DNA of 64,000 bases from Akkermansia sp. Its GTDB lineage: Bacteria > Verrucomicrobiota > Verrucomicrobiia > Limisphaerales > SIBH01. The notes below the pieces were generated by a model, which did no database searches, was not told the DNA's origin, and worked only from the letters and a program-made list of their open reading frames with translations. How positions within the stretch are numbered: position 1 is the first letter of the stretch; every line of letters begins with the position of its first letter. The stretch spans positions 21,581 to 85,580 of the forward strand of contig JAYVNY010000191.1 in assembly GCA_043758205.1 (NCBI GenBank). The letters run 5' to 3'. Positions 3,138 through 18,932 of this stretch are shown one piece after another. The position numbers and the translations under genes were made by a program.

Positions 3138-4955
3138 CTATGACACTGGGGTCGCGGGCGCGTTTTGCAAGGCATGGAAACGCGCATAGTGACCGCCGAG
3201 CGCCACCAGTTCTTCGTGCGTTCCACTTTCCACCACCGCGCCTTGCTCCAGCACGATGATTCGCGTCGCGCGCCGGACGGTCGTAAGGCGATGCGCGATG
3301 ACGAAGGTGGTTCGATTCGCCGTGAGCCGCTCCAACACTTGCAGCAATGCGTGCTCGGTCGTCGCATCGAGCGCGCTCGTCGGTTCGTCGAGAATCAGGA
3401 TAGGAGCATTTTTCAGGAACGCGCGCGCGATGGAGAGCCGCTGGCGTTCGCCGCCGGAAAGCGTCGCGCCGCGCTCGCCGATGACCGTTTCGTATTTCTT
3501 GGGAAGGCGCTCGATGAAGGCGTCCGCGTTCGCATCTTTGGCTGCGGTCACAATGTCACGCGTCGTCGCGTGCGGATGGCCATAGGCGATATTTTCGGCG
3601 ATGGTCATCGGGAAGAGAAACGGTTCCTGGAGCACGACGGCGATATTCTGCCGCAGACTCTTCAACGTCACATCGCGTAAGTCGTGACCGTCGATCAGCA
3701 CCCGCCCATTCCACGGATCGGCAAAACGCGGAATCAGGCTGACTAACGTACTCTTGCCCGCGCCGGTCGCGCCGACGATGGCAATGGTTTCGCCGGGCCC
3801 CACATTTAGCGTGACTTCGCGCAGGACCGGACGGTCCGTTTCGTAGCCGAACGTGACTTTCTCAAACCGCACTTCGCCACGGACGTGCGGCAATGCAACT
3901 GCGCCGGGCTTGTCCCGAATCTCCACTTCACTCCTTAGAACTTCCAACACGCGACGCGCACTTCCGGATGCGCCTTGGATGGTGGAGGTCGTGTACATGA
4001 CTGCTTCCAGCGGCGCGTAGAGTGAACCGAGATAGGAGAGGAACAGCACGATGGCGCCGACCGTCAATTCACCGCGTAACGCGTGCTGGGCGCCGATCCA
4101 CAAGATGCCCGCTGTCCCCACGGCAGTGGCCAATCCAATGAGAAACTTGAACTGCATCTGCACGCGCGTGGCGGCCAGTGTCGTGGACATCGCTTCGTTC
4201 ACCGTGGCGTGGAACCGCTCATCGTTCGCGCGTTCGCGGGAAAACGCCTGCACGACGGGCATGGCGGAGAAGGTTTGTTCGACGACTTCGTAAATGTGCC
4301 CTTCGGCTTCCTGCTGCGCGTAACTGCGCTCCATCATCCGCTTCGCGAACAGGCGGAACACGACGATCAGGTAAGGCGCCACGGCGACGGCGAGCAAGGT
4401 GAGCGACGCGTTGATGCGCCACATCACCGTGAACATCGCGGTCAGAGCGAGGATGGAAGAGAACACGGGCAGCAGCGCGTCTTTGACAATTGTGGAGAGG
4501 CAGGTGCAATCCGCCGTCACGCGCCGGATGTTGTCACCCACCGATTTGCTGGCGTGAAATCGCAGCGAGAGTCCCTGGAATTTCGTGAACAAGTCCGACG
4601 CGAGATCATACGTCATGCGCTGGCCGAGGCTGATGTTTGCGTAATTGGTCACAACGTTTACGGACCAGCTCAACAGAAACAGAATGACTGTCGTCGCCAC
4701 GGCCCAGCCGATGAGATACGGCGCGTCGTGGGCACCCGGCAACGTGGCGACAAAATTTTCCAGCCACACCGGCATCGGCCTGTGGCGCAGGACGTAGTCG
4801 ATCAGGAAGACCATCGGCCATGGCTTCAGCACATCGAGGCCGACGCGCACCACCATCGTGGCAATCAAAACGACCAGCGGTGCGGGACGCCGGCACGCGT
4901 AACGCAGGGACCAGAGGCAGAGTCGCGTCGTGCTGATGTTCGTGGCTGAATTCAT
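3138..4955 (-). CDS. ABC exporter, fused permease/ATPase half-transporter (MsbA-like type I exporter)
   Basis: 605 aa with an N-terminal 6-TM region. Walker A GATGAGKST, signature LSGGERQRLSIARA, Walker B ILILDEPTSALD. The ATG overlaps the upstream stop (ATGA at 4952-4955). Confidence 0.95.
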   Translation of the reverse strand: MNSATNISTTRLCLWSLRYACRRPAPLVVLIATMVVRVGLDVLKPWPMVFLIDYVLRHRPMPVWLENFVATLPGAHDAPYLIGWAVATTVILFLLSWSVNVVTNYANISLGQRMTYDLASDLFTKFQGLSLRFHASKSVGDNIRRVTADCTCLSTIVKDALLPVFSSILALTAMFTVMWRINASLTLLAVAVAPYLIVVFRLFAKRMMERSYAQQEAEGHIYEVVEQTFSAMPVVQAFSRERANDERFHATVNEAMSTTLAATRVQMQFKFLIGLATAVGTAGILWIGAQHALRGELTVGAIVLFLSYLGSLYAPLEAVMYTTSTIQGASGSARRVLEVLRSEVEIRDKPGAVALPHVRGEVRFEKVTFGYETDRPVLREVTLNVGPGETIAIVGATGAGKSTLVSLIPRFADPWNGRVLIDGHDLRDVTLKSLRQNIAVVLQEPFLFPMTIAENIAYGHPHATTRDIVTAAKDANADAFIERLPKKYETVIGERGATLSGGERQRLSIARAFLKNAPILILDEPTSALDATTEHALLQVLERLTANRTTFVIAHRLTTVRRATRIIVLEQGAVVESGTHEELVALGGHYARFHALQNAPATPVS

Positions 4956-6715
4956 GCCGTGGCCCCGAGTTGCGGTTGATGAAAGCGTGCGTAGATGCCG
5001 CGGCGAGAAAGCAACTCATCGTGCGTGCCCAGTTCCGCGATGCGGCCATGATCGAGCACGGCAATTTTCGTGGCGCGGCGAATCGTTGAAAGCCGATGCG
5101 CAATCACGAACGTGGTGCGCCCGCGCATCAGTTGCTCCAAAGCCAACAGAATTGTTTGTTCCGTGCCGGAATCCAAAGCGCTGGTTGGTTCGTCGAGAAT
5201 GAGAATGGGCGAGTTCTTTAGAAACGCTCGGGCGATCGCAATGCGCTGACGTTCGCCACCGGACAGCGTTACTCCTCGCTCGGCAATAACCGTGTCGTAT
5301 CCATGCGGCAATCGCTCGATGAACTCGTGGGCATGGGCCGCTTGCGCCGCCGCAATAACTTCCGCGCGAGGCGCGCCAGGCCTTCCGTAGGCAATGTTCT
5401 CCGCCACGGAAAATGGAAAGAGAAACGGCTCTTGCAGCACGATTGAAATGTTCGCGCGCAGATCGGCAATGCGAAGGTCGCGCACATCGCTGCCGTCGAT
5501 CAGCACCCGGCCGGCCCTCACGTCGAAAAATCGCGGGATGAGATTCAACAGCGTGCTCTTGCCTGCGCCGGTCGCTCCGACAATCGCGATGGTTTCTCCC
5601 GGCGAAGCCACGAGCGAGACCTCGCAGAGCACCGGCTGGTTCGGTTCGTAAGCGAACGAAACGTCTTCGAATCGGACTTCGCCGCGCATTTTGGGCACGG
5701 GACGAGCATCGGGTTTGTCGGCCACCTCCGGCCTGGCCTCAAGCACTTCGACGACACGCTCAACACTCGCGCTCAGTCCCTGCATCGTCGTGTAAACACC
5801 GGTGAACGTTTTCATCTGCGTCTGCAACGAGTTCAGATACACTAGGAACACCAGCAGGCTGCCGAGAGAGAGTTCGTCCGCCAGCACGTGCCTCGCGCCG
5901 AACCAGAGAATGACACCCGTGCCGAGTGTCGTAATGAGTCCCGAGGCCAGGCTGTTCACGCTGCCGATCAAGGTGCTGCGCTGTTGCACGCGAATGGCGC
6001 TGTCGGCGAACTTCTCGAACTTCTCCTGCTCGCGCTCTTCCTGGCCGAACGCCTGCACGACGGGGATACCCGTGAGTGTTTGCTGGATATGAGACTGGAT
6101 TCGGCTCTCGATTTCGCGCCGCAACTTGGCGGCGGCCCGCAACGGTTTTCCCACCAGGAACGAAGCACAAACCATGAGCGGCGCGGTGATGAGGGCAATC
6201 CACGTCAGCGTCCCATCGAGCCGGGACATGAGGAAAATCATGGCGGCGATGGTGAGAAGCGCATGGCCCGGCGCGAAACACAACGCGTCCACCACATTGT
6301 GAACCGCCCAGCAGTCCACCGTGATGCGGCTCATCGTGTCGCCTACGGAGTTGCGACTGTGAAAGAGCAGCGAGCGGCGTTGCAGCCGGGCGAACATGTC
6401 CTCGGCGAGATCATAAACCATGCGGCGTCCGGCGACCGTCCAGAGCCACGTGAGCGCGGCATCGAGCGCGGCATTGATGACAAAGAGCGCGAGGCCGCAA
6501 ATAACGATTCCGGCGAGCAATCCCCGTGGTGTGGCGAAAATGTTCTGCAACCATTCGCCCGCGGGTTGCGTGCCGAGCACGTGATCGACAAGCAGTTTCA
6601 TCGGCCAGGGCTGAAGGGCGACCAGCGAGGAAGCGCAAACGGTCAGGAACGCGATGAAAATAAATCGCGAACGCTGTCGTCCAGCGTAAGGAAGCAACTT
6701 AAGCGCGCGTCGCAT
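4952..6715 (-). CDS. ABC exporter, fused permease/ATPase half-transporter (partner of 3138..4955)
   Basis: I trimmed the track ORF 4952..6841 to the ATG at 6715 (MRRALKLLPYAGRQRSRFIFIAFLTV...). It carries GATGAGKST, LSGGERQRIAIARA and ILILDEPTSALD. The gene pair suggests a heterodimer. Confidence 0.95.
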   Translation of the reverse strand: MRRALKLLPYAGRQRSRFIFIAFLTVCASSLVALQPWPMKLLVDHVLGTQPAGEWLQNIFATPRGLLAGIVICGLALFVINAALDAALTWLWTVAGRRMVYDLAEDMFARLQRRSLLFHSRNSVGDTMSRITVDCWAVHNVVDALCFAPGHALLTIAAMIFLMSRLDGTLTWIALITAPLMVCASFLVGKPLRAAAKLRREIESRIQSHIQQTLTGIPVVQAFGQEEREQEKFEKFADSAIRVQQRSTLIGSVNSLASGLITTLGTGVILWFGARHVLADELSLGSLLVFLVYLNSLQTQMKTFTGVYTTMQGLSASVERVVEVLEARPEVADKPDARPVPKMRGEVRFEDVSFAYEPNQPVLCEVSLVASPGETIAIVGATGAGKSTLLNLIPRFFDVRAGRVLIDGSDVRDLRIADLRANISIVLQEPFLFPFSVAENIAYGRPGAPRAEVIAAAQAAHAHEFIERLPHGYDTVIAERGVTLSGGERQRIAIARAFLKNSPILILDEPTSALDSGTEQTILLALEQLMRGRTTFVIAHRLSTIRRATKIAVLDHGRIAELGTHDELLSRRGIYARFHQPQLGATA

Positions 6716-6776
6716 CTGCGTTTGTAGCGTGCCAGAAAATGAGGCGCAGCAACAAATGTGGCTATTGTCGAAATCG

Positions 6777-7517
6777 TTACTCGCCCGCGCGCTGGGCGGC
6801 GACGTGGCCGTCGAAGTAAAGTGCGTTGCGCACGTTGCCATGCACGGGTTTGTACGGCAAATCGTCGTACCAACTCACCGCTGGATTGGGCACGTTGATA
6901 CGATCCGCGTCGGTAACGGCCCACAAATCCGCGCCGGATTTATATTGATCCATCGAGCCCAAAGTCATGGGTTCTTGTAAGGGACCGGGGCGGGACGGAT
7001 AGCCGAACGGGCGGACCTGCGCTCCGGGAGCAGGATCTATATTCTGGTTCAGAATGAAACATTTGCGACCATTCATGCTCGCGACGGCGGGGGCCTCCCT
7101 CTCATAGCCCGGACAGATCATCGTTTTCGCTATCACCATTTTGCCGGAAGGTTGCGGATAGCCCATCTGGGGAGCGATGTAGTAGGCCAATTCGTCCTTA
7201 CTGTTCTGGTCGTAATTCGGCCGGGCGCCACCCAGTGCTGGACCAGGCAATTTCTCTTCGTTATCACCGACGTAGAGGTAAATGCCGATGCCCATTTGCT
7301 TCAGATTGGAGAGACATTGCGTCTGCTGCGCTTTGCGCTTCGCTCGCGCCAAGGAGGGGAGCAATAGACTCGAGAGAATAGCAATGATCGCGATGACGAC
7401 GAGCAGTTCGATCAACGTAAAGCCTCGACACACGCAAGTTTTCAGCCCCGAACGGCCACACCAACTACCCATCGTTTTTCCAAATTGTTTCATAGTATTG
7501 GATCCTTCCTGATCCAC
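6777..7517 (-). CDS. Prepilin-type N-terminal cleavage/methylation domain protein (DUF1559 / H-X9-DG-like)
   Basis: Class III signal [24 protein letters not shown]. The C-terminus is [14 protein letters not shown] (H-x9-DG). The alternative ATG at 7493 (MKQFGK) is possible. Confidence 0.9.
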
Positions 7518-7583: not shown

Positions 7584-7808
7584 TCACCGCAACAACAGCA
7601 TGACGACTGTCGCCAGGCCAATGGCGAGGCAGCAAACTGACACCCCCACAAGCCACAGTCCCAGCCTCCGCCGTGGCGTCCCTAACAGGAATCCAAAAGC
7701 CACAGCGAGCGTTATGACTGCGGCGACTATGAGAACCATCGCGCCGCAGAAGAGCGGGACAAACAAGTCGTGCGCGATCAACACGATGCCTTGCGGTGCA
7801 GCACACAT
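7584..7808 (-). CDS. Hypothetical small membrane protein (74 aa, 2-3 predicted TM segments)
   Basis: Internal ATG of track ORF 7584..8048: MCAAPQGIVLIAHDLFVPLFCGAMVLIVAAVITLAVAFGFLLG..LWLVGVSVCCLAIGLATVVMLLLR. The hydrophobic pattern is the only evidence. Confidence 0.3.
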   Translation of the reverse strand: MCAAPQGIVLIAHDLFVPLFCGAMVLIVAAVITLAVAFGFLLGTPRRRLGLWLVGVSVCCLAIGLATVVMLLLR

Positions 7809-8044
7809 ATTTCGACGTCGAACGCGGAATCCTCGAACGCTACAGGGATAGTCCGGCCTGGAGCGGAAATGATTTCCGTATCGGAGATAAGGTGGAGCAT
7901 CGCTTCGTAAAGTCCCCGGCGACCCACGAATCGACAGGCTTGGGCTAGGCCCGAAAATGTAAGCGCCTCGGGCAGGTCCTGGGTCCACGCGCCAGTGCGA
8001 CTGGCGTAAGCTCCTTCGCGATTTCTTTGCACCAAGACTTTCAT
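7778..8044 (-). CDS. Hypothetical protein (88 aa)
   Basis: ORF MKVLVQRNREGAYASRTGAWTQDLPEALTF... in an AT-richer spacer. It overlaps the start of the small membrane ORF by ~30 nt. No recognisable family. Confidence 0.3.
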   Translation of the reverse strand: MKVLVQRNREGAYASRTGAWTQDLPEALTFSGLAQACRFVGRRGLYEAMLHLISDTEIISAPGRTIPVAFEDSAFDVEICVLHRKASC

Positions 8045-8233
8045 TCACCCGGCTTTCGCACGTGCCATGCCAATAGTGTGACGAGTCATTTAATCAGGGA
8101 CCGGGGTGCTGGCCCGCCCGCCTCGGTGGGTGTCATTTCCCACGGCAAGACATTTTGGGCGACCTCACCCGAACGCCCTCCCAACGGATAAAACGTTGAA
8201 CTGGTACTCGTTCCGCCCCGATATTTGAACGGC

Positions 8234-9676
8234 ATGTCCCCTGGAAAATTAGCCGGAACAAATATTCTGGTCGTCGAAGACGACCCATTGCTGCATCGGC
8301 AGATCGTGGCGCATCTGCAAAGTAGCGGTGCGGATGTTGTCGGCGTACCCAACCTCCAGCAGGCGAAAGGCGAACTTGAATCGCAGCGGAGTTTCGACGT
8401 GGCGCTGCTGGATGTGAATTTGCCGGACGGTCTCGGCACTGACTTGCTGACCTCGGGAGTTTTTCCCCAACAGACGGCGGTGATTGTGATGACCGCTCAC
8501 GGCGGAATTGATTGCGCGGTCGCCGCGATGAAAAATGGCGCCGCCGATTATCTGCGCAAGCCGTTCGATCTGGCGGAACTGCCGCTGGTGATTTCAAGGG
8601 CGCGCGAATCGGGCCGGCAGGCACGCATCAAAGAACACGTGCGGGAAACGAACGAAGATGCGGAGGATTCGTTTTTTTTCGGTGCCAGTCTGACAGCCCT
8701 GGCCAACCAGATGGATAAAATTATCGCAGCAGATGAGCGTCTCGGCTCGCTGTTGCCGCCCATTCTGATCGAAGGCGAGACGGGCACGGGCAAGACCACG
8801 ATCGCGCGGCGGTTGCACGACCGCGGACCGCGACAAACCCGTCCGTTCATCGACATCAATTGCTCGGCGCTGCCCGATCATCTGCTGGAATCGGAATTGT
8901 TCGGGCACGAGCGCGGCGCTTTCACGGACGCGCGGACAGCGCGCATGGGGTTGTTCGAGGCAGCGGACGGCGGCACGCTTTTTTTGGATGAGCTTCCGAG
9001 CCTGCCACTCTCGGCGCAGGCGAAACTGCTCACGGCCATCGAGACGAAGCGCATTCGCCGCCTCGGCAGTAACAAGACCATTGAAGTGGATGTGCGGGTG
9101 ATCACCGCGACCAATCGCGACCTCAAGGAATCTGTCGCCCAGGGTGAGTTCCGGGAAGATCTGTATCACCGCCTCGATCTGTATCGTGTCAGCATTCCGC
9201 CCCTGCGCGAACGCGGCGAGGACATCATCAAGCTGGCCGGGTTAATCCTCGCGCGCGTGTGCCGGCGCCATCGCGCCGCGCCGCGAACTATCAGTGCGCA
9301 GGGCCAACGCCAGCTCTTGAGTTATCGCTGGCCCGGCAATGTCCGCGAGCTGGCCCATGAGATTGAGCGCGCGGTGGTTTTTGAAGACGCCGCTGTGCTC
9401 GACTTCGCACGGCTTGCGCCCGACTCAGCCGCGCCGATTGCCGCCCTCCCAATGGCCGATTCGAACGAATGGTTTAATGACCAATTCGTTTTTCCAACGG
9501 ATGGTTTTTCGCTGGATGCCGCCACGAATCGGCTCATTCATCAGGCTTTGAAACAGTCCAGGGCCAATGTCTCGGCAGCCGCACGCCTGTTGGGCGTCTC
9601 GCGAGATTTCCTGCGCTACAGACTGGCGGGAAAGCAAACTGAGAACATGCCCCCATCCGAGAGCGACAAAGGGTGA
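8234..9676 (+). CDS. Sigma54-dependent response regulator (NtrC/ZraR family enhancer-binding protein)
   Basis: REC domain ILVVEDDPLL...FDVALLDVNLPDGLG. AAA+ domain ILIEGETGTGKT and ESELFGHERGAFTDA (a GAFTGA-loop variant). C-terminal Fis-type HTH NVSAAARLLGVSRDFLRYRL. I prefer the ATG at 8234 over the track TTG at 8225. Confidence 0.95.
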   Translation: MSPGKLAGTNILVVEDDPLLHRQIVAHLQSSGADVVGVPNLQQAKGELESQRSFDVALLDVNLPDGLGTDLLTSGVFPQQTAVIVMTAHGGIDCAVAAMKNGAADYLRKPFDLAELPLVISRARESGRQARIKEHVRETNEDAEDSFFFGASLTALANQMDKIIAADERLGSLLPPILIEGETGTGKTTIARRLHDRGPRQTRPFIDINCSALPDHLLESELFGHERGAFTDARTARMGLFEAADGGTLFLDELPSLPLSAQAKLLTAIETKRIRRLGSNKTIEVDVRVITATNRDLKESVAQGEFREDLYHRLDLYRVSIPPLRERGEDIIKLAGLILARVCRRHRAAPRTISAQGQRQLLSYRWPGNVRELAHEIERAVVFEDAAVLDFARLAPDSAAPIAALPMADSNEWFNDQFVFPTDGFSLDAATNRLIHQALKQSRANVSAAARLLGVSRDFLRYRLAGKQTENMPPSESDKG

Positions 9677-9737
9677 AGACACCCATGATGGTTCACGTTC
9701 ACAGGCCACAGGCCGATGGGTTGGGGTGGGCCATCGG

Positions 9738-9753
9738 TGGCACGTTCTGTGCA
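9738..9753 (+). promoter_or_regulatory. Sigma54 (-24/-12) promoter candidate
   Basis: TGGCACGTTCTGTGCA compared with consensus TGGCACG-N4-TTGCW. The GG/GC spacing is exact and there is one mismatch in the -12 box. It lies ~40 nt upstream of the ATG at 9792, directly after a sigma54 activator gene. Confidence 0.6.
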
Positions 9754-9791
9754 TCTCGAAGGTCATAGGGATGCCACAACAGGTAAATAAC

Positions 9792-10310
9792 ATGAAAATA
9801 AGTAAAACAATGGTGACCGGGATCTTGAGCCTGACGATGGGGCTGGCCCTGCTCACGAACTCTGCCCGCGCGCAGAGTCCGACAAACGAACCGCCCGTCG
9901 TGCCGCCCGGACCTGGCACGCCGCCTCCGGCAGGGACGGTGCCAGTCAGTCCGAAAGTGCCGACGGTGGTCGTGGTGCCCACTGTGCCGGCAACTCCCGG
10001 GGTCCCAGACCGGCCGGGTCCACCCGCTGGCAGTCAGCCGCCCGCCGAAGTGAAAGACAAAGTTGATGCCTTCAAGCAGGCCCGTGAATCGTTCCTCGCC
10101 AAGCAGCGTGAACTGGCCGGCGCGAAGCGGCAGCAACTGACCGAGGAACAGCGGCAGGCGCTCATTGAAACCATCAAAGCCAACCAGCAGGAACTCCGGG
10201 CGCGCATCGATGAAATCAAAAACGAGTTTCGTAACCGGGACATCGACACGGTGATTGAGGATGTCAAACGCAGTGGAGGCGATGGACGCCCGCGCCGCGG
10301 TGAAGATTAA
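9792..10310 (+). CDS. Secreted Pro-rich / coiled-coil protein with LTXXQ motif (CpxP/Spy/ZraP-like)
   Basis: I trimmed track ORF 9567..10310 to the ATG at 9792. Signal peptide MKISKTMVTGILSLTMGLALLTNSARA, then a Pro-rich linker, then a helical part containing QQLTEEQRQALIETIKANQQELRARI. Confidence 0.7.
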   Translation: MKISKTMVTGILSLTMGLALLTNSARAQSPTNEPPVVPPGPGTPPPAGTVPVSPKVPTVVVVPTVPATPGVPDRPGPPAGSQPPAEVKDKVDAFKQARESFLAKQRELAGAKRQQLTEEQRQALIETIKANQQELRARIDEIKNEFRNRDIDTVIEDVKRSGGDGRPRRGED

Positions 10311-10322
10311 AATTCTCCCGGT

Positions 10323-11462
10323 GTGACGACTCATTCCAGCAGGCGGCCGCGTGGTCGCCTGCGCTGTTATTTTTTGATAGCCGCGCTGATGACCGCGCGG
10401 CTCTCGTTTGGTGCCATGGACACAAATGACGTGAGTGCAATCTCCTTGCCCGACTGGATGCGCTTCTACGCGCTGCGGTCGGGGATTGGTTACAAAGACA
10501 ATGTGCTTCTTTCGTTGCATCCGCGCGGCAGCGCCTTCGTGAGTGCGGGCGGAGATTTCATGATGGTGCGCCTGCCGGGCAGCGGCGTGGACGCACAATT
10601 TTTTCTCTCTGCGGACCGGACGCATTTTCTGGCGAGTGATGTCCCGGACAGCGAACACACCATTGCGGGCGTCGGCAAAGTTTCGTTCAAGAGCGGCCGG
10701 GCCACGACTACTCTGAGTGCCAATTACGTTTTTCAAGACCAGGTGCTCGACGTCTCGACGACAGAACCGGAGTTCAACACCATTCGCATCCGCGTGCATG
10801 ACATGGCGGTGAAACCCGCCGTCCGCTACGATCTCGCGCGGCAATGGTTTGTCGAAGTCGAGCCAGCGGGCCGGCGCCAGGAATTCGCCAAGCCGCTGGA
10901 CGACATTTGGGAAGCGAGCCTGAAAACGACACTCGGCTACGAATATGGTTTTCGCTCCCGCGCCACACTTTCAGCGCAAGCATCCGAACGGTTTTACGAT
11001 GAGAAGACGCAGCGCACCGTCGCCGGCGAAACGATTCCTGACACTTCGTTGCGCATGCACCGCGTTATCATCGAGTCCGCCGTGGATCATTACTGGGATA
11101 AAAAGCGCGTCTGGCGAACGCAGGGCCGCCTGGGTTACTGGCGCAACAACGACAATGGTTCGGGCTACTTCGATTACGACCGCTGGTTCGCACAGGTGCA
11201 GATGCGCTACAAGCGCGCGCCATGGGAACTGCGGGCGCAGGTACGGTTCGACGATTACATTTATGCCCACCAAACTGTGAGCACCACGAACTCCGACCGC
11301 CGTCGCGAAAATGAAATCACCGTGGGCTGCCGCGCCGAACGGCAGATCACGAAGGCGACCAAAGTGTTCGTGCAGTACGACCGGGTTGTTTCCCGCTCGT
11401 CCCGTTCTCTCGATGAATATGATTCGCAAACGGTGAGTGGTGGGGCACAATGGGATTTCTAA
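10323..11462 (+). CDS. Putative outer-membrane beta-barrel protein
   Basis: 379 aa with a signal-like N-terminus (CYFLIAALMTARLSFGA). The sequence alternates amphipathic Y/R/W-rich segments and ends in an aromatic residue (...GGAQWDF). No family recognised. Confidence 0.55.
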   Translation: MTTHSSRRPRGRLRCYFLIAALMTARLSFGAMDTNDVSAISLPDWMRFYALRSGIGYKDNVLLSLHPRGSAFVSAGGDFMMVRLPGSGVDAQFFLSADRTHFLASDVPDSEHTIAGVGKVSFKSGRATTTLSANYVFQDQVLDVSTTEPEFNTIRIRVHDMAVKPAVRYDLARQWFVEVEPAGRRQEFAKPLDDIWEASLKTTLGYEYGFRSRATLSAQASERFYDEKTQRTVAGETIPDTSLRMHRVIIESAVDHYWDKKRVWRTQGRLGYWRNNDNGSGYFDYDRWFAQVQMRYKRAPWELRAQVRFDDYIYAHQTVSTTNSDRRRENEITVGCRAERQITKATKVFVQYDRVVSRSSRSLDEYDSQTVSGGAQWDF

Positions 11463-11502
11463 TCAGAATGCAACCCGGCAATGCCGATGAGTTGATTGGC
11501 CA

Positions 11503-12915
11503 GTGAAAAGATTCCGCAAATTTCAGAAACGACCTGCGAGCGCATTTTGGCTCGGCACGGGCGCCGTTACGTTTGTCGTGGCGGTTCTTGGCGCCGCGGT
11601 GTGGCTCATCAGCGCGCGCCTCGAAAGGCAGGTGCAGCAACAAATTCTCGACCGTGATGCCTACGCGCTGCACTCGGTGTTCATGATGCAGGTGCTCTCG
11701 AAGCAGGATGCCGGCGGCGCGGATTGGGGCATCAAAGATCCGCTGAACCAACTCACGGCCATTCTCGAAACGTCACGGTTGAAAGGCGTGCTCGCGGCGC
11801 GTCTCTATTCTCCCGCCGGTAATTTTCTCTTCGCCGTTCCCAACAATGTGGCGAGCGCGCCACTGAACGCGGTGGCTCTTCGCGAGGCGCGACAACTCAA
11901 ACCATCGGCCCGGTTCGACGCGCAAGGGAAACTTCACGAACTGTTCGAAGGGGACCGCCCGACTCCACCCGTCCCGCTCGTGCGCGTAACGATTCCCATC
12001 CATGCGCTCGCCGCGCGGCAACTCGACGGCATTGCCGAGTTCATTCTGGACGGGCATCCCGTGGCCGCTGAATACAGCACGCTGGCGAGCCGGCTTTCGC
12101 GCCACGGTCTGATTGTATTCCTCCTCGCTGCGGGCCTGATCGGGCTGGTGATTGGCTGGTCGCTGCGGCGGTTGAGCCGCATCAACCACGCGCTGGCGGC
12201 GCGCACGGCGGAACTGGTGCGCGCGAATGAAGAACTCACCCTGGCGGCAAAAACTTCGGCGATTGGTTCTGTGGCGGCGCATCTGATGCATGGCCTGCGT
12301 AACCCTCTCGCGGGGTTGCAGAACTTCGTCACCGCCGGCGGGGGCGCCGCAATCACCAGTTCGGATTGGGAACTCGCCGCGGACGCCACCGCGCGAATGG
12401 GCCGGCTGATGGATGAGACGGTGCGCGTGCTCACTGAAGAACACGGCATCACGCGTTACAACATCACCAGTGGCGAACTCGCGTCCCTGCTCCGATCTCG
12501 GATGACGCCGCCGGCCGAGCAGTCGGACGTGAAGCTCGACATCGTGGCCGCCGCGGAGTCGTCCCTGCCGAATCGCGAAGCGAACATCGTGCTGCTCGTG
12601 CTTCAAAACCTCGTTAAGAATGCCATCGACTGCACTCTTGCGGGCCACACTGTCAGCGTGCGCTTGTTTGAAGACGCCAGTAGCTTTGTCTGCGAAGTGA
12701 GCGACGCAGGCCCGGGACTGCCGGAGCACGTGCGTGACAATCTGTTTCGCCCGGTGCGTTCGACGAAACCCGACGGCGCTGGCATCGGCCTGGCCATTTG
12801 CAAACAACTGGCCGCGCACATCGCCGCTGAACTCACGGTGAAAAAAACTTCGCGTGAGGGAACGGTGTTCGCACTCACGTTGCCGGCCAAAACCCATGCC
12901 TTGAAAGTCGCATGA
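11503..12915 (+). CDS. Sensor histidine kinase (two TM segments, ~170-aa extracytoplasmic domain)
   Basis: GTG start. H-box SVAAHLMHGLRNPLAGL, N-box LVLQNLVKNAIDCT, G1 VSDAGPGLP, G2 DGAGIGLAICKQL. Confidence 0.9.
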   Translation: MKRFRKFQKRPASAFWLGTGAVTFVVAVLGAAVWLISARLERQVQQQILDRDAYALHSVFMMQVLSKQDAGGADWGIKDPLNQLTAILETSRLKGVLAARLYSPAGNFLFAVPNNVASAPLNAVALREARQLKPSARFDAQGKLHELFEGDRPTPPVPLVRVTIPIHALAARQLDGIAEFILDGHPVAAEYSTLASRLSRHGLIVFLLAAGLIGLVIGWSLRRLSRINHALAARTAELVRANEELTLAAKTSAIGSVAAHLMHGLRNPLAGLQNFVTAGGGAAITSSDWELAADATARMGRLMDETVRVLTEEHGITRYNITSGELASLLRSRMTPPAEQSDVKLDIVAAAESSLPNREANIVLLVLQNLVKNAIDCTLAGHTVSVRLFEDASSFVCEVSDAGPGLPEHVRDNLFRPVRSTKPDGAGIGLAICKQLAAHIAAELTVKKTSREGTVFALTLPAKTHALKVA

Positions 12916-14885
12916 AAACCGGTGCGCTTCTGTGGCTGCTGGGGTTCGCGCTCGCCTGGGCGCAGCCGGATTTGCGCTGGCGCTGGTCGAACCCGCGTCC
13001 CTTCGGTAACAACGCCACCGACCTCGCTTACGCGGGCGGACTGTACCTCGTGGTCGGCGAACGCGGCCAACTCTACTCCAGCTACGATCTCGATACGTGG
13101 ACGCCGCAGGACAGTTTCACCACTAATTCACTTCGCGGCGTGGCGTTCCTCGGCGGACGCGCCATCATCGTCGGTGAAAATGGGACCGTCCTTTACGGCG
13201 ATACGCCGGAATCATTCAGCGTGACCAATCTCGGCACGGCGAACTGGCTCGAAGCCGTGGCGTGCAATTCAACCAATCTCGCCGTAGCGGTGGGCGACAA
13301 TGCAGCCGTGTACACGAGCACGAACGGGATTCTGTGGCAGCTTCGCTCGCAGCCGTTCAGCACCTGGCTGCGCGGTGTGGCCTACGGCGCGGGCGGGTTC
13401 GTTGCCGTTGGCGAGGGCGGATTCATCGCTACCAGCAGCAATGGAACGTCGTGGCAGCAACGCACCAGCGGCACGACGAGCAATCTCAATCGTGTGGTTT
13501 GGATTGTGGATCGTTACTGGGCCACGGGCGATGGCGGCAAAGCGCTGACCAGCGGGACGGGTGTCACGTGGACCCAGGAAAGTTCCGGTGCGAGCCGTCC
13601 ATTGTATCTCGCGGCAGGAGATTCTGTGAAAAAACTCGTGGGCGGCGACACGGAGTTGCGCCTCAAACAAAACGGCGTGTGGTCGAACCAGCTTTCAACA
13701 ACCAGGATTTCTCCCGCGCCCGCGTGGACTTACCTGAGCAGCGTGTGGGACGGACGCCTGTTTCTCGTGGGCGGGCGCACCGGAATGTTGCTCGAAGGTT
13801 TTAGCAACACAAACGGGACGGACACGTTGTGGGTGGATCGCAACCTTTCCGTGCGCACATGGCTTTGGGCCGTGACGCGCACCACCAATCTCTACGTCGC
13901 TGTCGGCGACAAGGGCACGGTGATGACGAGCTTTGACGGCGTGGATTGGCAACTGGAATTCGTGCCGTCCACCGTCACGAACAGTGTGTTCATCGGCGTG
14001 GGCGGCGCGCCGGGGTTGACCATCGCCGCAGGCAGCCAGGGTTCGCTTATCATCAGCACGAATGGTTTCGATTGGACGGCGATTGAGCCGCGACCTTCGG
14101 TGAACGATCTGCAAGGCGTCGCGTTCACGAACGGACTTTTCGTCGTGTGCGGCGGCGCGGGAACCATTCTCACCAGCACGAATGGCACGCAGTGGACGAC
14201 GCGCGTTTCCGGCACGACAAACTTCCTGTCCGGCGTGCTGGCGTACCCGGGCGGGTTCATCGCAGTCGGGCATCGCGGCACCATCCTCACCAGTCCCGAC
14301 GCTGTCACCTGGACGAAGCGCACCTCGGGGATCACGAATTGGCTTTACCGGATCGGCTGGTTCGGGAGCACGCTCGTAACGGTCGGCCAGAATGGCGTGA
14401 TTCTGACCAGCACTGATGGCGCGTCATGGACAGCGCGGACGAGCGGGACTTCTCAATGGCTGAACGACGTGGCGCGTCTCGATGGCTATTACTTTGCCGT
14501 CGGTAATGGCGGAGCCGTTGTCATCAGTTCCAACCTCACTTCGTGGTCAGCGATTGGCACCAGCACACGGAAATCACTGTTCGGCGTGGCGACGCATCAG
14601 GGACGGTTGGTGACGGTCGGCACTGAGGGCGTCATCCTCCGCACCCGCGTGTTTCCTCAGCTCGATCCGCCGGTCTTCCAGAACTACGCGCGAACCACGA
14701 ACTACAACTTGTATTTCCTTTCCGGCAAAACCGATCAACGCATCACGCTCGACCACAGTCTCAGGCTCACGAATTGGAATTCGGGCCCGCGTTTCGAATT
14801 CCTCGATGGAGGGGGCACGCTCCTGTTGCTGGAAACACGCGCCATGACCAATCGGGAATTCTACGAGGCTACGCTCGTTCCCTAA
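12912..14885 (+). CDS. Secreted multi-bladed beta-propeller repeat protein (BNR/Asp-box- or Ycf48-like repeats)
   Basis: Signal peptide MKTGALLWLLGFALAWA. At least 11 repeats of the form G.G..G.ILTS.(D/N)G..W (TSTNGILWQ, SSNGTSWQ, TSFDGVDWQ, STNGFDWT, TSTNGTQWT, TSTDGASWT...). The ATG overlaps the kinase stop (ATGA). Confidence 0.8.
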   Translation: MKTGALLWLLGFALAWAQPDLRWRWSNPRPFGNNATDLAYAGGLYLVVGERGQLYSSYDLDTWTPQDSFTTNSLRGVAFLGGRAIIVGENGTVLYGDTPESFSVTNLGTANWLEAVACNSTNLAVAVGDNAAVYTSTNGILWQLRSQPFSTWLRGVAYGAGGFVAVGEGGFIATSSNGTSWQQRTSGTTSNLNRVVWIVDRYWATGDGGKALTSGTGVTWTQESSGASRPLYLAAGDSVKKLVGGDTELRLKQNGVWSNQLSTTRISPAPAWTYLSSVWDGRLFLVGGRTGMLLEGFSNTNGTDTLWVDRNLSVRTWLWAVTRTTNLYVAVGDKGTVMTSFDGVDWQLEFVPSTVTNSVFIGVGGAPGLTIAAGSQGSLIISTNGFDWTAIEPRPSVNDLQGVAFTNGLFVVCGGAGTILTSTNGTQWTTRVSGTTNFLSGVLAYPGGFIAVGHRGTILTSPDAVTWTKRTSGITNWLYRIGWFGSTLVTVGQNGVILTSTDGASWTARTSGTSQWLNDVARLDGYYFAVGNGGAVVISSNLTSWSAIGTSTRKSLFGVATHQGRLVTVGTEGVILRTRVFPQLDPPVFQNYARTTNYNLYFLSGKTDQRITLDHSLRLTNWNSGPRFEFLDGGGTLLLLETRAMTNREFYEATLVP

Positions 14886-14912
14886 CCGGAACATTCAGTA
14901 CTTTTCGAGGAG

Positions 14913-14958
14913 CACACGCGCCTCGCGTGTTCCGACCGGCGCCCTCGCCGGTCGGAAC
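14913..14958 (+). terminator. Two consecutive GC-rich hairpins after the propeller gene
   Basis: ACACGCG-CCT-CGCGTGT is followed immediately by GTTCCGACCGGCG-CCCT-CGCCGGTCGGAAC, a perfect 13-bp stem. There is no U-tract, so intrinsic-terminator function is uncertain. Confidence 0.4.
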
Positions 14959-15257
14959 GAGCGCCCACCGACGGACCAAATCGTGCGGGCTGGGGACGTC
15001 TTTGGAATGTTGCGCGAGGGCAGCAACACCGCACGCGAGGGCGCGTGCGTGCATTTGAATCATTCCGTCTAGGTGCTCCTCCGTTGGGAACCAGAACCCA
15101 GCCCCGGGAGGCTCCTGGGTGAGCGCGCCCATCATCAATACCCGCACTTCGCACGGTGTTTCATGTTGGTGCAATTTCTGCATCACGACAGGACACCGGG
15201 CGCAGTCGCCACGTGGCATTGAGACTGCAAGCGACTGGAACAATAATTACAACAATC

Positions 15258-16505
15258 ATGAAAACATACAGATACATTCGACCAATCGCCCTCGCTGCAG
15301 CCGTGGTTTGCTCGTCCATCGCGATCCATGCCGCTGATTTTATCCCGGACCGCTATATCGTCGCATTACAGCCGAACGCCGACCCGGCGCAAGTTGCGGC
15401 GCGTTATGGCGTGACTCCAACGCACGTTTACACCGATGCCGTGCGCGGCTTCGCCGGACTCATCAGCAAAGCCCGCCTGCAACGGCTCGCGCAGGACGCT
15501 GACGTGACCGTCATCGAACAGGATCGAGTCGTATCACTCGGACAAGTGGCCAGCATGGGCGAGAGCGGAACCGTGGCTGCCACGTCCACGGATTACGTGC
15601 CGACCGGGGTCAACCGCATCGATGCGGAACTGAATCCGCGCACCGATGCCTCTGCTGTCGGAATCGCGATTATCGACACCGGCATTTCACTCACACACCC
15701 CGACCTGAACGTGGCTGGCGGCGTTTCCTATGTGCGCGGCGTGCGTTCGGCCAATGACGACAACGGCCACGGCAGCCATGTCTCTGGCATTGCAGCCGCG
15801 AAGGTCAATGACATCGGCATCCGCGGCGTTGCACCCAATGCGCGCCTCTTCGCCGTGAAGGTTTTGGATTCGACGGGCAGCGGCTCGCTGTCGGGTGTCA
15901 TTTCCGGCATCGACTGGGTGACGAAGAATACGAAGACCAAAGGCATTCAGGTCGCGAACATGAGCCTCGGGTTCCAAGGCACCAGCTCGACGCTCGACAG
16001 CGCCATTACGAAATCCGTGGACGCAGGCGTCACTTACGTGGTGGCAGCCGGGAACAACGCCGCGGATGCGAACACATTCAGCCCGGCGCGGCACCCGAAG
16101 GTCATCACCATCTCCGCGTTCGTGGATACGGACGGCCAATGCGGCGGCGCGGGCGTGGGCACGGGCTACGGCGCAGACGACAGCTTCGCCTCCTTCAGCA
16201 ACTACGGATCGGTGGTGGCGCTCGCCGCCCCCGGGGTGAACATCTACTCGACTTACAAGGACGGCGGCTACGCCACGATGTCCGGCACGAGCATGTCTTC
16301 TCCGCATGTGGCCGGCGCGGCTTTGCAATACATCGCCGGGCACGCGGGCGCGACACCCGCGCAAGTCCGTTCGGCGCTGCTCAATGCGGCCACGCCGCAA
16401 TCCTGGACCTCTTGCACGCAAGATGCGACCGGCCGCTACCGCGGCGGATTTTTCGGAGACGTAGATGCCTACGCGGAACCAGTCGTGGATGTCGCAACGT
16501 TCTAG
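15258..16505 (+). CDS. Secreted subtilisin-like serine protease (peptidase S8 with I9 propeptide)
   Basis: I trimmed the track ORF to the ATG at 15258 (MKTYRYIRPIALAAAVVCSSIAIHA). Catalytic triad: IAIIDTGI (Asp), GHGSHVSG (His), SGTSMSSPHVAG (Ser). Confidence 0.95.
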   Translation: MKTYRYIRPIALAAAVVCSSIAIHAADFIPDRYIVALQPNADPAQVAARYGVTPTHVYTDAVRGFAGLISKARLQRLAQDADVTVIEQDRVVSLGQVASMGESGTVAATSTDYVPTGVNRIDAELNPRTDASAVGIAIIDTGISLTHPDLNVAGGVSYVRGVRSANDDNGHGSHVSGIAAAKVNDIGIRGVAPNARLFAVKVLDSTGSGSLSGVISGIDWVTKNTKTKGIQVANMSLGFQGTSSTLDSAITKSVDAGVTYVVAAGNNAADANTFSPARHPKVITISAFVDTDGQCGGAGVGTGYGADDSFASFSNYGSVVALAAPGVNIYSTYKDGGYATMSGTSMSSPHVAGAALQYIAGHAGATPAQVRSALLNAATPQSWTSCTQDATGRYRGGFFGDVDAYAEPVVDVATF

Positions 16506-16631
16506 GACTTGCTGCGTGCGACTTCATGAGTATCCCCGCGCGCAGCTGGCCGCTCCACTTGGGTGGGGCGGCCATCACGCTTGAACAAGACGCAACCAAC
16601 GATCGACCGCACCAAAGCTAAAACTGTCACT

Positions 16632-18932
16632 ATGAAAAACTCAATCAATGCAATCGCGATCGCGCTTCTCGGCTTACTGACGGCAACGATGTCGCACGCA
16701 GCCGTGCCGGGCCCTGCACTCTCGGGAATATTCAGCTCCATCAGCGCGGGGAGCGTCGTGAACCTCTCCACCGAAGGAGAGATCGATTGGGTCCACTGGG
16801 GGTTGTTCACGGAGACGAGCCTTGATCGGAAAGCGGGTGTCATCGCGCAGATCAGCGACTTCACGCTCCTCGATGCGAGCAACGGATACGCCTACGTATA
16901 TCAATACGCCGACAACGCGAACAGCTACGGTTGGTTTGACGGCACGCCGAATGCGACCGTCACCAACACCACGACCGGGGTGTGGGCTTACGGCGTTCCA
17001 CAAATTGGCAGCGGGTTCAGGATCACCGCACCAGCCGACACCGCTACGCGCACGTTGAAAGTGTACGTTGGGGCCTACGGCGCGCGCGGGAAGTTTGAAG
17101 CCTTTCTGAGCGATGCCAGTGCCGCCGGATACACCAACACTTCGCTCTTCAATGTCATGAGCGGTCCGAGCGGAGTTTACACGCTCAACTACGCCGCCGC
17201 TTCAGCAGGGCAGCAGATGATTGTCCGATGGACGCTCACGTCGCCCTTTCAAGCGGATGGAAACGTGACGCTACAATCAGCCGCGCTGACTTCCAGCACC
17301 GCCAACAACCCTCCGTACGTCGCTCTCACGAATCCGCCGAACAACGCGAAGCTCTCCGCGGGAAACACCATTACGCTCCAGGCGACCGCGAGCGATCTGG
17401 ATGGCACCATTGCCAAAGTCGAATTCTACGCTGACAGCACGAAGCTGGGCGAAGACCTCACAAGTCCCTACAGCTTCGCATGGAGTTCGGTTCCCGCCGG
17501 CGCCTACGTGCTGACCGCGCGCGCGCTCGATAATCAAGGCGCCGCGTCTGTGTCACCGCCCGTGGAAATTTTTGTCAACGGCTCGGGCGGCACCTTGGCG
17601 GCGAGCAAAACAACGCCGGCCACTTCAATTAACCTCACGACAGACGGCAGCCGCGACTGGGCGCATTGGGGTCTGGCAACGAATAGCTTGTTCAATCACA
17701 AGGCCTCTGTCGTCCAGCAGATTAGCGACTACACCAAGATCGGCACCAACACAGCCCAACGATACACCGACAATTATACGGCGTTCGCGTGGAGCGACGG
17801 CACGCCGACGGCTTCCGTGTCCGGCGCGAACATCGGCGTGTACACGACCGGGGTGACGAATGGGTTCGAGATTACCGTTCCGGCCGACACCAACTCGCGC
17901 ACGCTGAAGGTGTACGTGGGGCTTTACGGAGCGCAGGGGAATTTTCAGGTGTGGTTGAGCGATTTCAGCGCCGCGGCTTTCACCGATACGAGCTTGAGCA
18001 ATTATTACGGCAGCTCGTACGGCGTTTACACCATCACGTATTCGGCAGCGTCCGCAGGGCAATCTCTCAAGGTGCGCTATCGCTCGTTGAAACTGTTCGA
18101 CCAGGACTACGGTAACGTCACGCTTCAAGCTGCGACCCTCGTCGTGAACTCGACGGGGAATACGCCACCCTTGGTGCAGATTACGTCACCGACCAACGGC
18201 ACGGTGTTGACCGCTCCGGCGAGCTTTACAGTTTCGGCAAGCGCTTCGGACAGTGACGGCACGATCAACCAGGTGGAGTTTTTCAACGGCAGCACATCGC
18301 TCGGCGTGGATAGTTCCAGTCCTTACAGCGTGTCCGTGAGCAGCCTGGCGGCAGGCAATTACACGCTCTCGGCTGTGGCCACGGACAACTCGGGCGCGAA
18401 GGCCACCAACAGCGTTTCCATCATCGTGAACAATCCGCCGACCGCGTCGATCACCAGCCCGACCAATGGGGCGTCCTTCGCAGCGCCCGCGACCATTACG
18501 ATTGCGGCGACGGCGAGTGACAGCGACGGAAGCATTGCGAAAGCGGAATTTTATCAAGGCGCGACCAAACTGGGCGAAGACACCACCTCTCCTTACTCAC
18601 TGGCGTGGAGCAACGTATCGGCGGGAAGTTACACGCTCAGTGTGAAAGCCATTGATGACCACGGCGCCGTGGGCACCTCGGCTGCGATTTCCATTAACGT
18701 GACGAACCTGCCGCCGCCGCCAGTCACGATTTTCGGCGCTGTCGCCCAGGGCGATGCACTGAGGTTCTCGTTTGCGACGGAACTTGGCCGCTCCTATTGG
18801 GTGGAGCGCGCGGCGGCATTGCCGTCCACCAATTGGCAAACCATCACGAACCTCAGCGGCACCGGCACGAACGTCACCGTGCGCGACGCCAGCGCACTGC
18901 CGATACACTTCTACCGCGTGGGGGCGCAATGA
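16632..18932 (+). CDS. Large secreted protein: SP - unknown domain A - Ig-like - domain A - Ig-like x2 - C-terminal FYRV module
   Basis: ATG at 16632 (MKNSINAIAIALLGLLTATMSHA). There are two ~220-aa copies of a domain marked by DW.HWGL, ISD(F/Y)T, RTLKVYVG.YGA.G.F...LSD and GNVTLQ.A.L. The Ig-like units have the form SP.NG....AP....T..A.ASDSDG.I..VEF. The protein ends ...LPIHFYRVGAQ. Confidence 0.85.
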   Translation: MKNSINAIAIALLGLLTATMSHAAVPGPALSGIFSSISAGSVVNLSTEGEIDWVHWGLFTETSLDRKAGVIAQISDFTLLDASNGYAYVYQYADNANSYGWFDGTPNATVTNTTTGVWAYGVPQIGSGFRITAPADTATRTLKVYVGAYGARGKFEAFLSDASAAGYTNTSLFNVMSGPSGVYTLNYAAASAGQQMIVRWTLTSPFQADGNVTLQSAALTSSTANNPPYVALTNPPNNAKLSAGNTITLQATASDLDGTIAKVEFYADSTKLGEDLTSPYSFAWSSVPAGAYVLTARALDNQGAASVSPPVEIFVNGSGGTLAASKTTPATSINLTTDGSRDWAHWGLATNSLFNHKASVVQQISDYTKIGTNTAQRYTDNYTAFAWSDGTPTASVSGANIGVYTTGVTNGFEITVPADTNSRTLKVYVGLYGAQGNFQVWLSDFSAAAFTDTSLSNYYGSSYGVYTITYSAASAGQSLKVRYRSLKLFDQDYGNVTLQAATLVVNSTGNTPPLVQITSPTNGTVLTAPASFTVSASASDSDGTINQVEFFNGSTSLGVDSSSPYSVSVSSLAAGNYTLSAVATDNSGAKATNSVSIIVNNPPTASITSPTNGASFAAPATITIAATASDSDGSIAKAEFYQGATKLGEDTTSPYSLAWSNVSAGSYTLSVKAIDDHGAVGTSAAISINVTNLPPPPVTIFGAVAQGDALRFSFATELGRSYWVERAAALPSTNWQTITNLSGTGTNVTVRDASALPIHFYRVGAQ

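Follow-up and report, generated by a model that had tools for sequence, protein, structure and literature searches.

A probable sigma-54-dependent two-component module of the cell envelope in the Verrucomicrobiota

Background

Are the five genes at positions 8234 to 14885 of this Akkermansia sp. contig one regulatory system, and if they are, do they belong with ZraPSR? The window is the whole stretch that was analysed, 64,000 nucleotides (nt) of contig JAYVNY010000191.1. ZraPSR, known from E. coli and Salmonella, pairs a kinase that senses the periplasm with a sigma-54 activator of the NtrC type, and the two control ZraP, a small secreted helical protein. The system has been reviewed (PMC4987338). 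A preliminary description of the window proposed a single sigma-54-dependent two-component envelope module with this logic. We argue that it is probably right about the module: the genes fit a conserved system that is specific to the Verrucomicrobiota and works by the mechanism set out below. The module is a so far uncharacterised variant of the NtrC-type two-component system. Verrucomicrobiota are abundant in soil and water, and their gene regulation is almost uncharted. What the module offers is a complete testable circuit, with an enhancer motif, a promoter, a kinase partner supported by gene fusions and three conserved envelope families that carry no annotation. We found no paper in the literature that describes the five genes as a module.

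Conservation of the five-gene block

The five genes follow one another in the same direction on the + strand. They encode an NtrC-type response regulator and sigma-54 activator (8234-9676), a small secreted protein (9792-10310), an outer-membrane beta-barrel (10323-11462), a sensor histidine kinase (11503-12915) and a secreted repeat protein that we call the propeller (12912-14885). The small and barrel genes are 12 nt apart and the barrel and kinase genes 40 nt, and the kinase and propeller genes overlap by 4 nt in the ATGA at 12912-12915. The gene order, this overlap, the GAFTDA loop of the activator and the -24/-12 element had all been given in the preliminary description, and all are present in the sequence. 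The separation of the kinase from its regulator by two envelope genes, which it had stressed, holds too.

The loci compared with the window are the contigs of barrel relatives, 27 loci from GTDB genomes that were retrieved with an eight-sequence barrel alignment, and the close relative L036. Nearly all of the 27 carry a Verrucomicrobiota label, and all of them are metagenome-assembled. The same order of the block recurs in more than 30 Verrucomicrobiota loci whose flanks are unrelated. Clustering of the open reading frames (ORFs) across loci recovered only the five module genes, plus shadow ORFs on the opposite strand. Across the loci, activators are 56-62% identical to the window protein, propellers mostly 40-52% (34-68% when every locus is counted), kinases 35-43% and barrels 26-39%, with outlier or partial loci at 28% and 40%. 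Similarity to the small protein of the window is barely detectable across loci. Conservation in related genomes had been proposed as a check on the single-module claim, and the block stands up to it.

An alternative order is found in L020, L022, L024, L025 and L026. The activator gene there abuts the barrel gene, and the kinase and propeller genes have the promoter and small gene between them. Since both were relocated to this place in five loci, promoter and small gene travel as a unit. L020 has two small-protein genes (6430-6846 and 9596-10102). One overlaps the activator stop codon and has no sigma-54 promoter, and the other comes after the kinase gene and has one. This locus looks like an intermediate between the two orders.

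Promoter and enhancer

The element ahead of the small gene is TGGCACGTTCTGTGCA (9738-9753, + strand). It has one mismatch to the -24/-12 consensus used for the scan, TGGCAC-N5-TTGCW with GG and GC 10 bp apart, and it is the sole site in the window with at most one. Chance would give one match of this quality in 64 kb, so that TGGCACGTTCTGTGCA alone proves nothing. What makes it significant is where it lies and that it is conserved across loci. In the related loci, 335.6 kb in all, we counted 33 sites with at most two mismatches on the strand of the genes and 12 on the opposite one, and about 21 of the 33 stand directly before the small gene. The remaining loci have sites with three mismatches in the same place, ~100 nt after a palindrome. 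The site at 9738-9753 thus has the GG and GC elements, the place upstream of a gene and the conservation of a sigma-54-dependent promoter. Judged from these sequences we take the -24/-12 promoter before the small gene to be real, as had been supposed for the window.

The second cis-element is a tandem pair of 16-bp palindromes, TGGG-N8-CCCA, whose copies are 29-44 bp apart and which lies ~70-150 bp upstream of the -24 element. Nearly all loci have equivalents, and the pairs are restricted to the promoter regions of the module. Pair A, TGGGTGTCATTTCCCA and TGGGCGACCTCACCCG (8127-8171, with starts at 8127 and 8156, 29 bp apart), is upstream of the activator gene, and a counterpart precedes the activator gene of L036. 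Pair B, TGAGAACATGCCCCCA and AGGGTGAAGACACCCA (9640-9685), is the putative activator-binding enhancer of the small gene's promoter. It overlaps the activator stop codon, with its copies at -98 and -68 from the promoter, and is kept in L036. Pair C, TGGGAACCAGAACCCA and TGGGTGAGCGCGCCCA (15085-15131, with starts at 15085 and 15116), consists of two exact copies 31 bp apart, and equivalents follow the propeller gene in L036, L005 and L015. The whole window has four exact copies of TGGG-N8-CCCA, three of them in intergenic regions of the module. We argue that the pair is likely the binding site of the activator. In L022 a second palindrome pair and promoter lie between the small and propeller genes (10595-10720). 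L031 has a duplicated propeller, with a second small-like gene behind a palindrome pair of its own (9493-14760).

Could the five genes be mere neighbours that are transcribed separately and have no common function? No sigma-70-like site was found on the + strand from 7959, where the last one before the activator gene ends, to 15218, in a scan that does not cover the promoters of the host phylum. There is thus no such site within the stretch from small gene to propeller gene, and the limit of the scan is a point that can be made for separate transcription. The blocks that no activator gene adjoins are another. Against this, the genes co-occur in more than 30 loci with different flanks, they have enhancer motifs in common, the promoter relocates together with the small gene, and kinase and propeller are fused in some genomes. 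These points disfavour the idea, and we find it hardly credible.

The activator and its relatives

The activator matches Pfam Response_reg (72 bits), Sigma54_activat (210.4 bits), AAA_lid_14 (63.4 bits) and HTH_8 (27.8 bits). It has the receiver, the AAA+ sigma-54 interaction domain and the Fis-type helix-turn-helix of a response-regulator-type enhancer-binding protein of the NtrC family. The sigma-54 contact loop is present as GAFTDA, encoded at 8915-8932, and it is unchanged in 16 of the 16 activator ORFs scanned, the window's own included. The preliminary description had singled out GAFTDA in place of GAFTGA. The substitution is there but it is not special, since it has been reported from a regulator of D. 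vulgaris whose targets are predicted to depend on sigma-54, and it is regarded as compatible with activation (PMC4641369). It has also been noted in Dickeya VfmH, where its effect is not known (PMC10714721).

ZraS and ZraR had been offered as the precedent for this kinase and regulator. As orthologues they do not hold. The activator is below every NCBIfam equivalog cut-off, with 270.9 bits against ZraR where 760 are needed, and the kinase reaches 67.5 bits against a ZraS cut-off of 479, although ZraS is among its top matches. PrsK and PrsR, which belong to the PEP-CTERM system (TIGR02916, TIGR02915), fall short too. PrsK is the best NCBIfam match of the kinase (79.9 bits, cut-off 300), and PrsR is among the top regulator matches (296.7 bits, cut-off 502.6). 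PrsK/PrsR also controls exported proteins, but the module scores far below these cut-offs and no exosortase or PEP-CTERM genes are kept nearby in the ORF clustering.

The kinase and its propeller partner

The kinase has a HATPase_c domain and an NtrB-like H-box, AHLMHGLRNPL. Its first transmembrane segment is at ~15-38 and its second at ~201-222, with a periplasmic domain of ~160 amino acids between them. The propeller is a secreted protein of 657 amino acids with a predicted ~14 blades, built from 39-residue repeats, and a C-terminal domain of ~80 residues. Nine Asp-box-like motifs, S-x-(D/N)-G-x-x-W, recur with the 39-residue period. Pfam DUF6242 is matched at 29.5 bits against a threshold of 29, and one relative has a PSII_BNR match just below the cut-off. 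A sequence search against the PDB gave nothing useful. The protein had been described as a BNR-like propeller of ~650 residues. The length and the Asp-box-like motifs are borne out; the propeller fold is read from the repeats only and should be regarded as predicted. An exhaustive search puts the blade repeat in a very large superfamily, with 29,285 representatives at E<=0.001.

Evidence for a partnership comes from gene fusion. Five kinase-propeller fusions are among the best matches of the blade-repeat search. In these the HATPase_c domain (~365-470) is followed by a linker, a hydrophobic segment and the conserved W-x-W-S-N-P start of the propeller. The hydrophobic segment occupies the place of the propeller signal peptide. 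Three fusions, those of L037, L038 and L039, were traced to contigs and all three are in module context, one of them as the same protein on 11 contigs. The fusion is present in no fewer than three genomes besides that of the window. In a fusion of this topology the propeller lies in the periplasm, anchored next to the sensor domain of the kinase. Fusion of the two proteins supports the idea of a co-sensor, and we regard the propeller as the putative periplasmic co-sensor of the kinase. The suggestion that it is a kinase partner is thus strengthened by fusions with an intervening transmembrane segment in three module contexts. Translational coupling of the two genes was also suggested. The ATGA overlap is there in the window, but coupling is not universal because one clade has the promoter and small gene in between.

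Two kinds of known sensor resemble this arrangement. Hybrid two-component systems of Bacteroides, such as BT4663, also couple a propeller on the periplasmic side to a histidine kinase, and in some module genomes the two are likewise one polypeptide. The Bacteroides proteins have N-terminal propellers (Reg_prop/Y_Y_Y) and a fused AraC-type regulator. In the module the propeller is instead secreted as a protein of its own or fused to the C-terminal end of the kinase behind a third transmembrane segment, its repeats are Asp-box-like and output is through sigma-54. In LuxQ/LuxP and TorS/TorT a secreted protein encoded beside the kinase is its ligand-binding partner, which is the putative role of the propeller here. 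Their partners, however, have periplasmic binding-protein folds and not propellers, and they have no outer-membrane barrel.

The small secreted protein

The small gene is the one product that is always directly behind the -24/-12 promoter. In the window it encodes 172 amino acids (9792-10310, with an alternative start at 9771) that belong to no known family. A signal peptide with an A-x-A cleavage site, as read from the sequence, is kept in the relatives. It is followed by a Pro-rich disordered linker, a helix rich in Arg, Glu and Gln, and the C-terminal RPRRGED. The preliminary description called this an LTXXQ periplasmic protein and proposed a search with hidden Markov models as the check. 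If it were correct, the module would be a true system of the ZraPSR or Cpx type, and the small protein a divergent LTXXQ chaperone (Spy/CpxP/ZraP) that represses the kinase.

There is something to be said for this. As one would expect of ZraPSR, a sigma-54 promoter precedes the gene of a small secreted helical protein and a kinase and an NtrC-type regulator are encoded beside it, and ZraS is among the top matches of the kinase, though under the cut-off. The signal peptide makes the protein an exported one, as members of the LTXXQ/Spy/CpxP/ZraP group are. LTEEQ occurs at residues 116-120, and 1 of 72 relatives has been named 'Spy/CpxP family protein refolding chaperone' by the Joint Genome Institute. 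The sequence tests point the other way. LTXXQ proteins typically have two motifs per chain and this one has a single copy, which is common only to the two closest relatives. The others have A-T-x-x-E-R, and so neither the L nor the Q of the motif is kept. The window protein matches neither LTXXQ (PF07813) nor Metal_resist (PF13801) nor an NCBIfam equivalent at E<=0.1. Of the 72 relatives found, 58 are in alignment A4; a smaller set has 19 members, and each protein of either set was scanned at E<=1. Both Pfam families are absent from the 25 most-matched families listed for the 19- and 58-member sets, which are generic coiled-coil ones, and the 25 NCBIfam families listed for the 58 are coiled-coil noise. 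A profile search of PDB sequences at E<=10 returned no Spy, CpxP or ZraP. In hhalign comparisons a relation to Spy has a probability of 1.2% and one to ZraP 13.7%, with both reference sequences entered by hand. An AlphaFold2 monomer (predicted local distance difference test, pLDDT, 65), from an alignment assembled from database matches, has 84 disordered N-terminal residues, a long helix at 85-148 and a short helix, and Foldseek finds 0 matches for it in the PDB. One LTXXQ-like string is not sufficient to call a protein Spy- or ZraP-type. We consider a true ZraPSR or Cpx system very unlikely here, and the LTXXQ assignment is not supported.

Since the LTXXQ sequence tests fail, the resemblance to ZraP is one of regulatory logic and not of family. 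Both systems pair a kinase with a sigma-54 activator of the NtrC type for the control of a small secreted helical protein, and the activator apparently has sites at its own gene too. This broad logic, in which kinase and activator drive a small periplasmic helical protein, was recognised correctly from the start. The differences are that the small protein has no detectable homology to ZraP, that regulator and kinase are far below the ZraR and ZraS cut-offs, that the genes are collinear where those of ZraPSR are divergent, and that the module adds a barrel and a propeller and keeps its kinase apart from the regulator. CpxAR with CpxP and Spy is similar in concept: a two-component system responds to envelope stress, and what it induces most is a small helical protein of the periplasm, with possible feedback on the kinase. 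Cpx, however, uses an OmpR-type regulator and sigma-70, and the module protein is not a detectable member of LTXXQ. By analogy, a role as a feedback modulator or chaperone like ZraP or CpxP is plausible for the small protein.

The small proteins share a basic-acidic C-terminal tail, RPRRGED, RRGD or RRGE. Those of the alternative-order clade have two conserved cysteines. In L001, a metagenome-assembled genome, the small protein (6853-7476) is extremely rich in Met and Gln. The module of L001 lies ~1 kb upstream of a CusCBA-like efflux set (OEP, HMBD-CusB and ACR_tran, 13212-16691), which may hint at a link to metals in that lineage only.

The outer-membrane barrel

The barrel gene (10323-11462) starts with a GTG at 10323 that gives the protein a proper signal peptide. 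An AlphaFold2 model (pLDDT 89.9) has 16 strands, and the closest PDB matches in Foldseek are porins, with a template modelling score of ~0.45. Every sequence of the eight-member alignment A2 has the C-terminal Phe. The signal peptide, the even number of strands and the terminal aromatic residue are those of an outer-membrane beta-barrel, and the earlier call of one is confirmed by the model and its porin matches. The protein matches no family, and none of its 54 homologues is annotated.

A barrel that resembles porins suggests another reading, in which the block is a unit for nutrient or glycan sensing and uptake. The barrel would be the substrate channel and the propeller a ligand-binding protein that feeds the kinase, comparable to the Bacteroides hybrid sensors with periplasmic propellers. 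The closest porins are substrate-specific ones (OprO/OprP, Occ and CymA), the propeller is coupled to the kinase, and glycoside hydrolases are near some loci. Yet no catabolic or transporter gene is kept with the block, and each locus has flanks of its own. What the module puts out throughout is a small helical protein and no enzyme, and the modelled barrel has short loops and no constriction loop. We regard an uptake unit as doubtful, and indeed quite unlikely.

It could also be proposed that the module serves the biogenesis or quality control of outer-membrane proteins. The small protein would be Skp-like, the propeller would resemble BamB or BamH, the barrel would be a client or partner, and envelope stress would induce the set. 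Weak OmpH matches are seen in 5 of 19 small proteins, and the propeller has a weak BamI_Bacteroidota match as well as its threshold-level match to DUF6242. DUF6242 is the family of Bt3727, which co-purifies with Bacteroides BamA (bioRxiv 10.1101/2025.01.31.636011). These matches are at noise or threshold level, though, and cover 1-2 blades or a generic coiled coil. The small protein lacks the beta body of Skp, and fusion to the kinase argues for a sensing role of the propeller. This proposal is highly improbable in our view.

Several features of the barrel gene deserve mention. The most conserved motifs of the protein, GYKDN, QDQVLDVS, PLDD and DNGSGYFDY, all map to a single rim of the model, which would be extracellular with the termini in the periplasm; all loops are short. 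A strong hairpin at 10339-10362, 30 nt past the small-gene stop, has a 10-bp stem with 8 GC pairs and then a T-run. We considered it as a terminator and rejected it, as it is within the region coding for the barrel signal peptide and the T-run is not kept in L036. The hairpin itself is kept in L036. It might attenuate read-through, or may merely reflect coding for RRPRGRL. Barrel paralogues outside the module are found in L009 (1911-8083) and L010 (2577-7618). In both the gene comes straight after that of a giant secreted protein with GDSL-lipase and DUF7133 domains, and one of these proteins has HEAT repeats and the other an NHL repeat. DUF7133 may be propeller-like, and if it is, these paralogues are again paired with a propeller-type protein.

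The regulon beyond the propeller gene

A GC-rich hairpin with a 14-bp stem (14928-14959, + strand, z-score -3.19, no U-tract) follows the propeller stop codon and may mark the end of the operon. Beyond it are pair C and a candidate second sigma-54 promoter, TGGCATTGAGACTGCA (15214-15229, + strand), which has clearer counterparts in L036 (8943), L005 (12271), L015 (12265) and L037 (9121). Two genes on the + strand come next in the window. The first encodes a secreted subtilase with an I9 propeptide (15258-16505; Pfam Peptidase_S8 and Inhibitor_I9), and the second a secreted protein with Ig-like repeats (16563-18932; Pfam Big_7 and PKD). Since this third palindrome pair and the candidate promoter precede both genes, the regulon would reach to ~18932, past the coordinates first given for the module. 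In L036, L005 and L015 a palindrome pair and promoter after the propeller gene are followed by the gene of a large Big_7 protein. The L036 orthologue is 75% identical to the window protein and directly follows the pair and promoter. L037 has the promoter after its propeller gene and no palindrome pair. On this cis-element evidence the Big_7/PKD protein is a likely member of the regulon, and the subtilase likely a lineage-specific one. A C-terminal '...FYR' domain shared by the propeller and the Big_7 protein was suspected, but BLAST finds no similarity between them.

On the other side of the module, no good + strand -24/-12 element was found between pair A and the start codon of the activator. 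A weak -24/-12-like element, TGGCATGGCACGTGCG, is on the - strand (8057-8072), with three mismatches and correct GG/GC spacing. It points away from the activator gene and is separated by 55 bp from the upstream pair of palindromes, and its aligned counterpart in L036 is TGGCACAGACCATGCG. A possible divergent ORF of 88 residues, with no signal peptide, lies at 7778-8044 on the - strand. It is 43% identical to the ORF at the same position in L036 (E 1.8e-16), with 40/30/61 differences at the three codon positions. Element and ORF occur only in the window and this close relative, and we regard both only tentatively as part of the regulon. The leader behind TGGCATGGCACGTGCG would be ~2 nt.

Proposed mechanism

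From gene content, conservation, cis-elements and fusion, which are seen directly, we infer phosphotransfer, DNA binding, operon structure and co-sensing in the following scheme. The inner-membrane kinase and the secreted multi-blade propeller, as its periplasmic co-sensor, would detect some envelope cue. The kinase would phosphorylate the NtrC-type activator, which would bind the tandem palindromes upstream of the -24/-12 promoters and activate sigma-54 RNA polymerase. The output predicted directly behind such a promoter is always the small secreted helical protein. In the window the closely spaced genes for barrel, kinase and propeller are probably transcribed from this promoter too, which would amount to positive autoregulation. 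The second enhancer and promoter, after the propeller gene, probably drive the subtilase and the Ig-repeat surface protein. As far as sequence can tell, the predicted skeleton of kinase and propeller, activator, palindromic enhancer, sigma-54 promoter and small protein is well supported.

It must be said that several facts weigh against this scheme. L015, L023, L031 and L039 have no activator gene adjoining the block. The palindromes of pair B at 9640 and 9670 have one mismatch each, and the second promoter of the window has three. No RpoN-box motif occurs in the six-frame translation of the 64-kb window, and the related sequences are nearly all metagenome-derived. With these points counted, we still hold that a conserved Verrucomicrobiota-specific module working in this way is fairly likely.

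A bolder version can be put forward, in which barrel, periplasmic double propeller and kinase are one physically connected trans-envelope sensor and the small protein is its induced feedback modulator. We think this unlikely. If true, the sensor would inform sigma-54 of the condition of the outer membrane or cell surface. It would be an architecture for envelope surveillance without a described counterpart, made from three unannotated protein families.

Neighbouring genes

The genes upstream of the module in the window are on the - strand. A prepilin-type N-methyl protein, typical of Verrucomicrobiota, is encoded at 6777-7517, and the synteny of this pilin-like gene is kept in L036 only. The stretch 3138-6841 holds ORFs of 605 and 629 amino acids, the second of which reads like an ABC exporter by eye.

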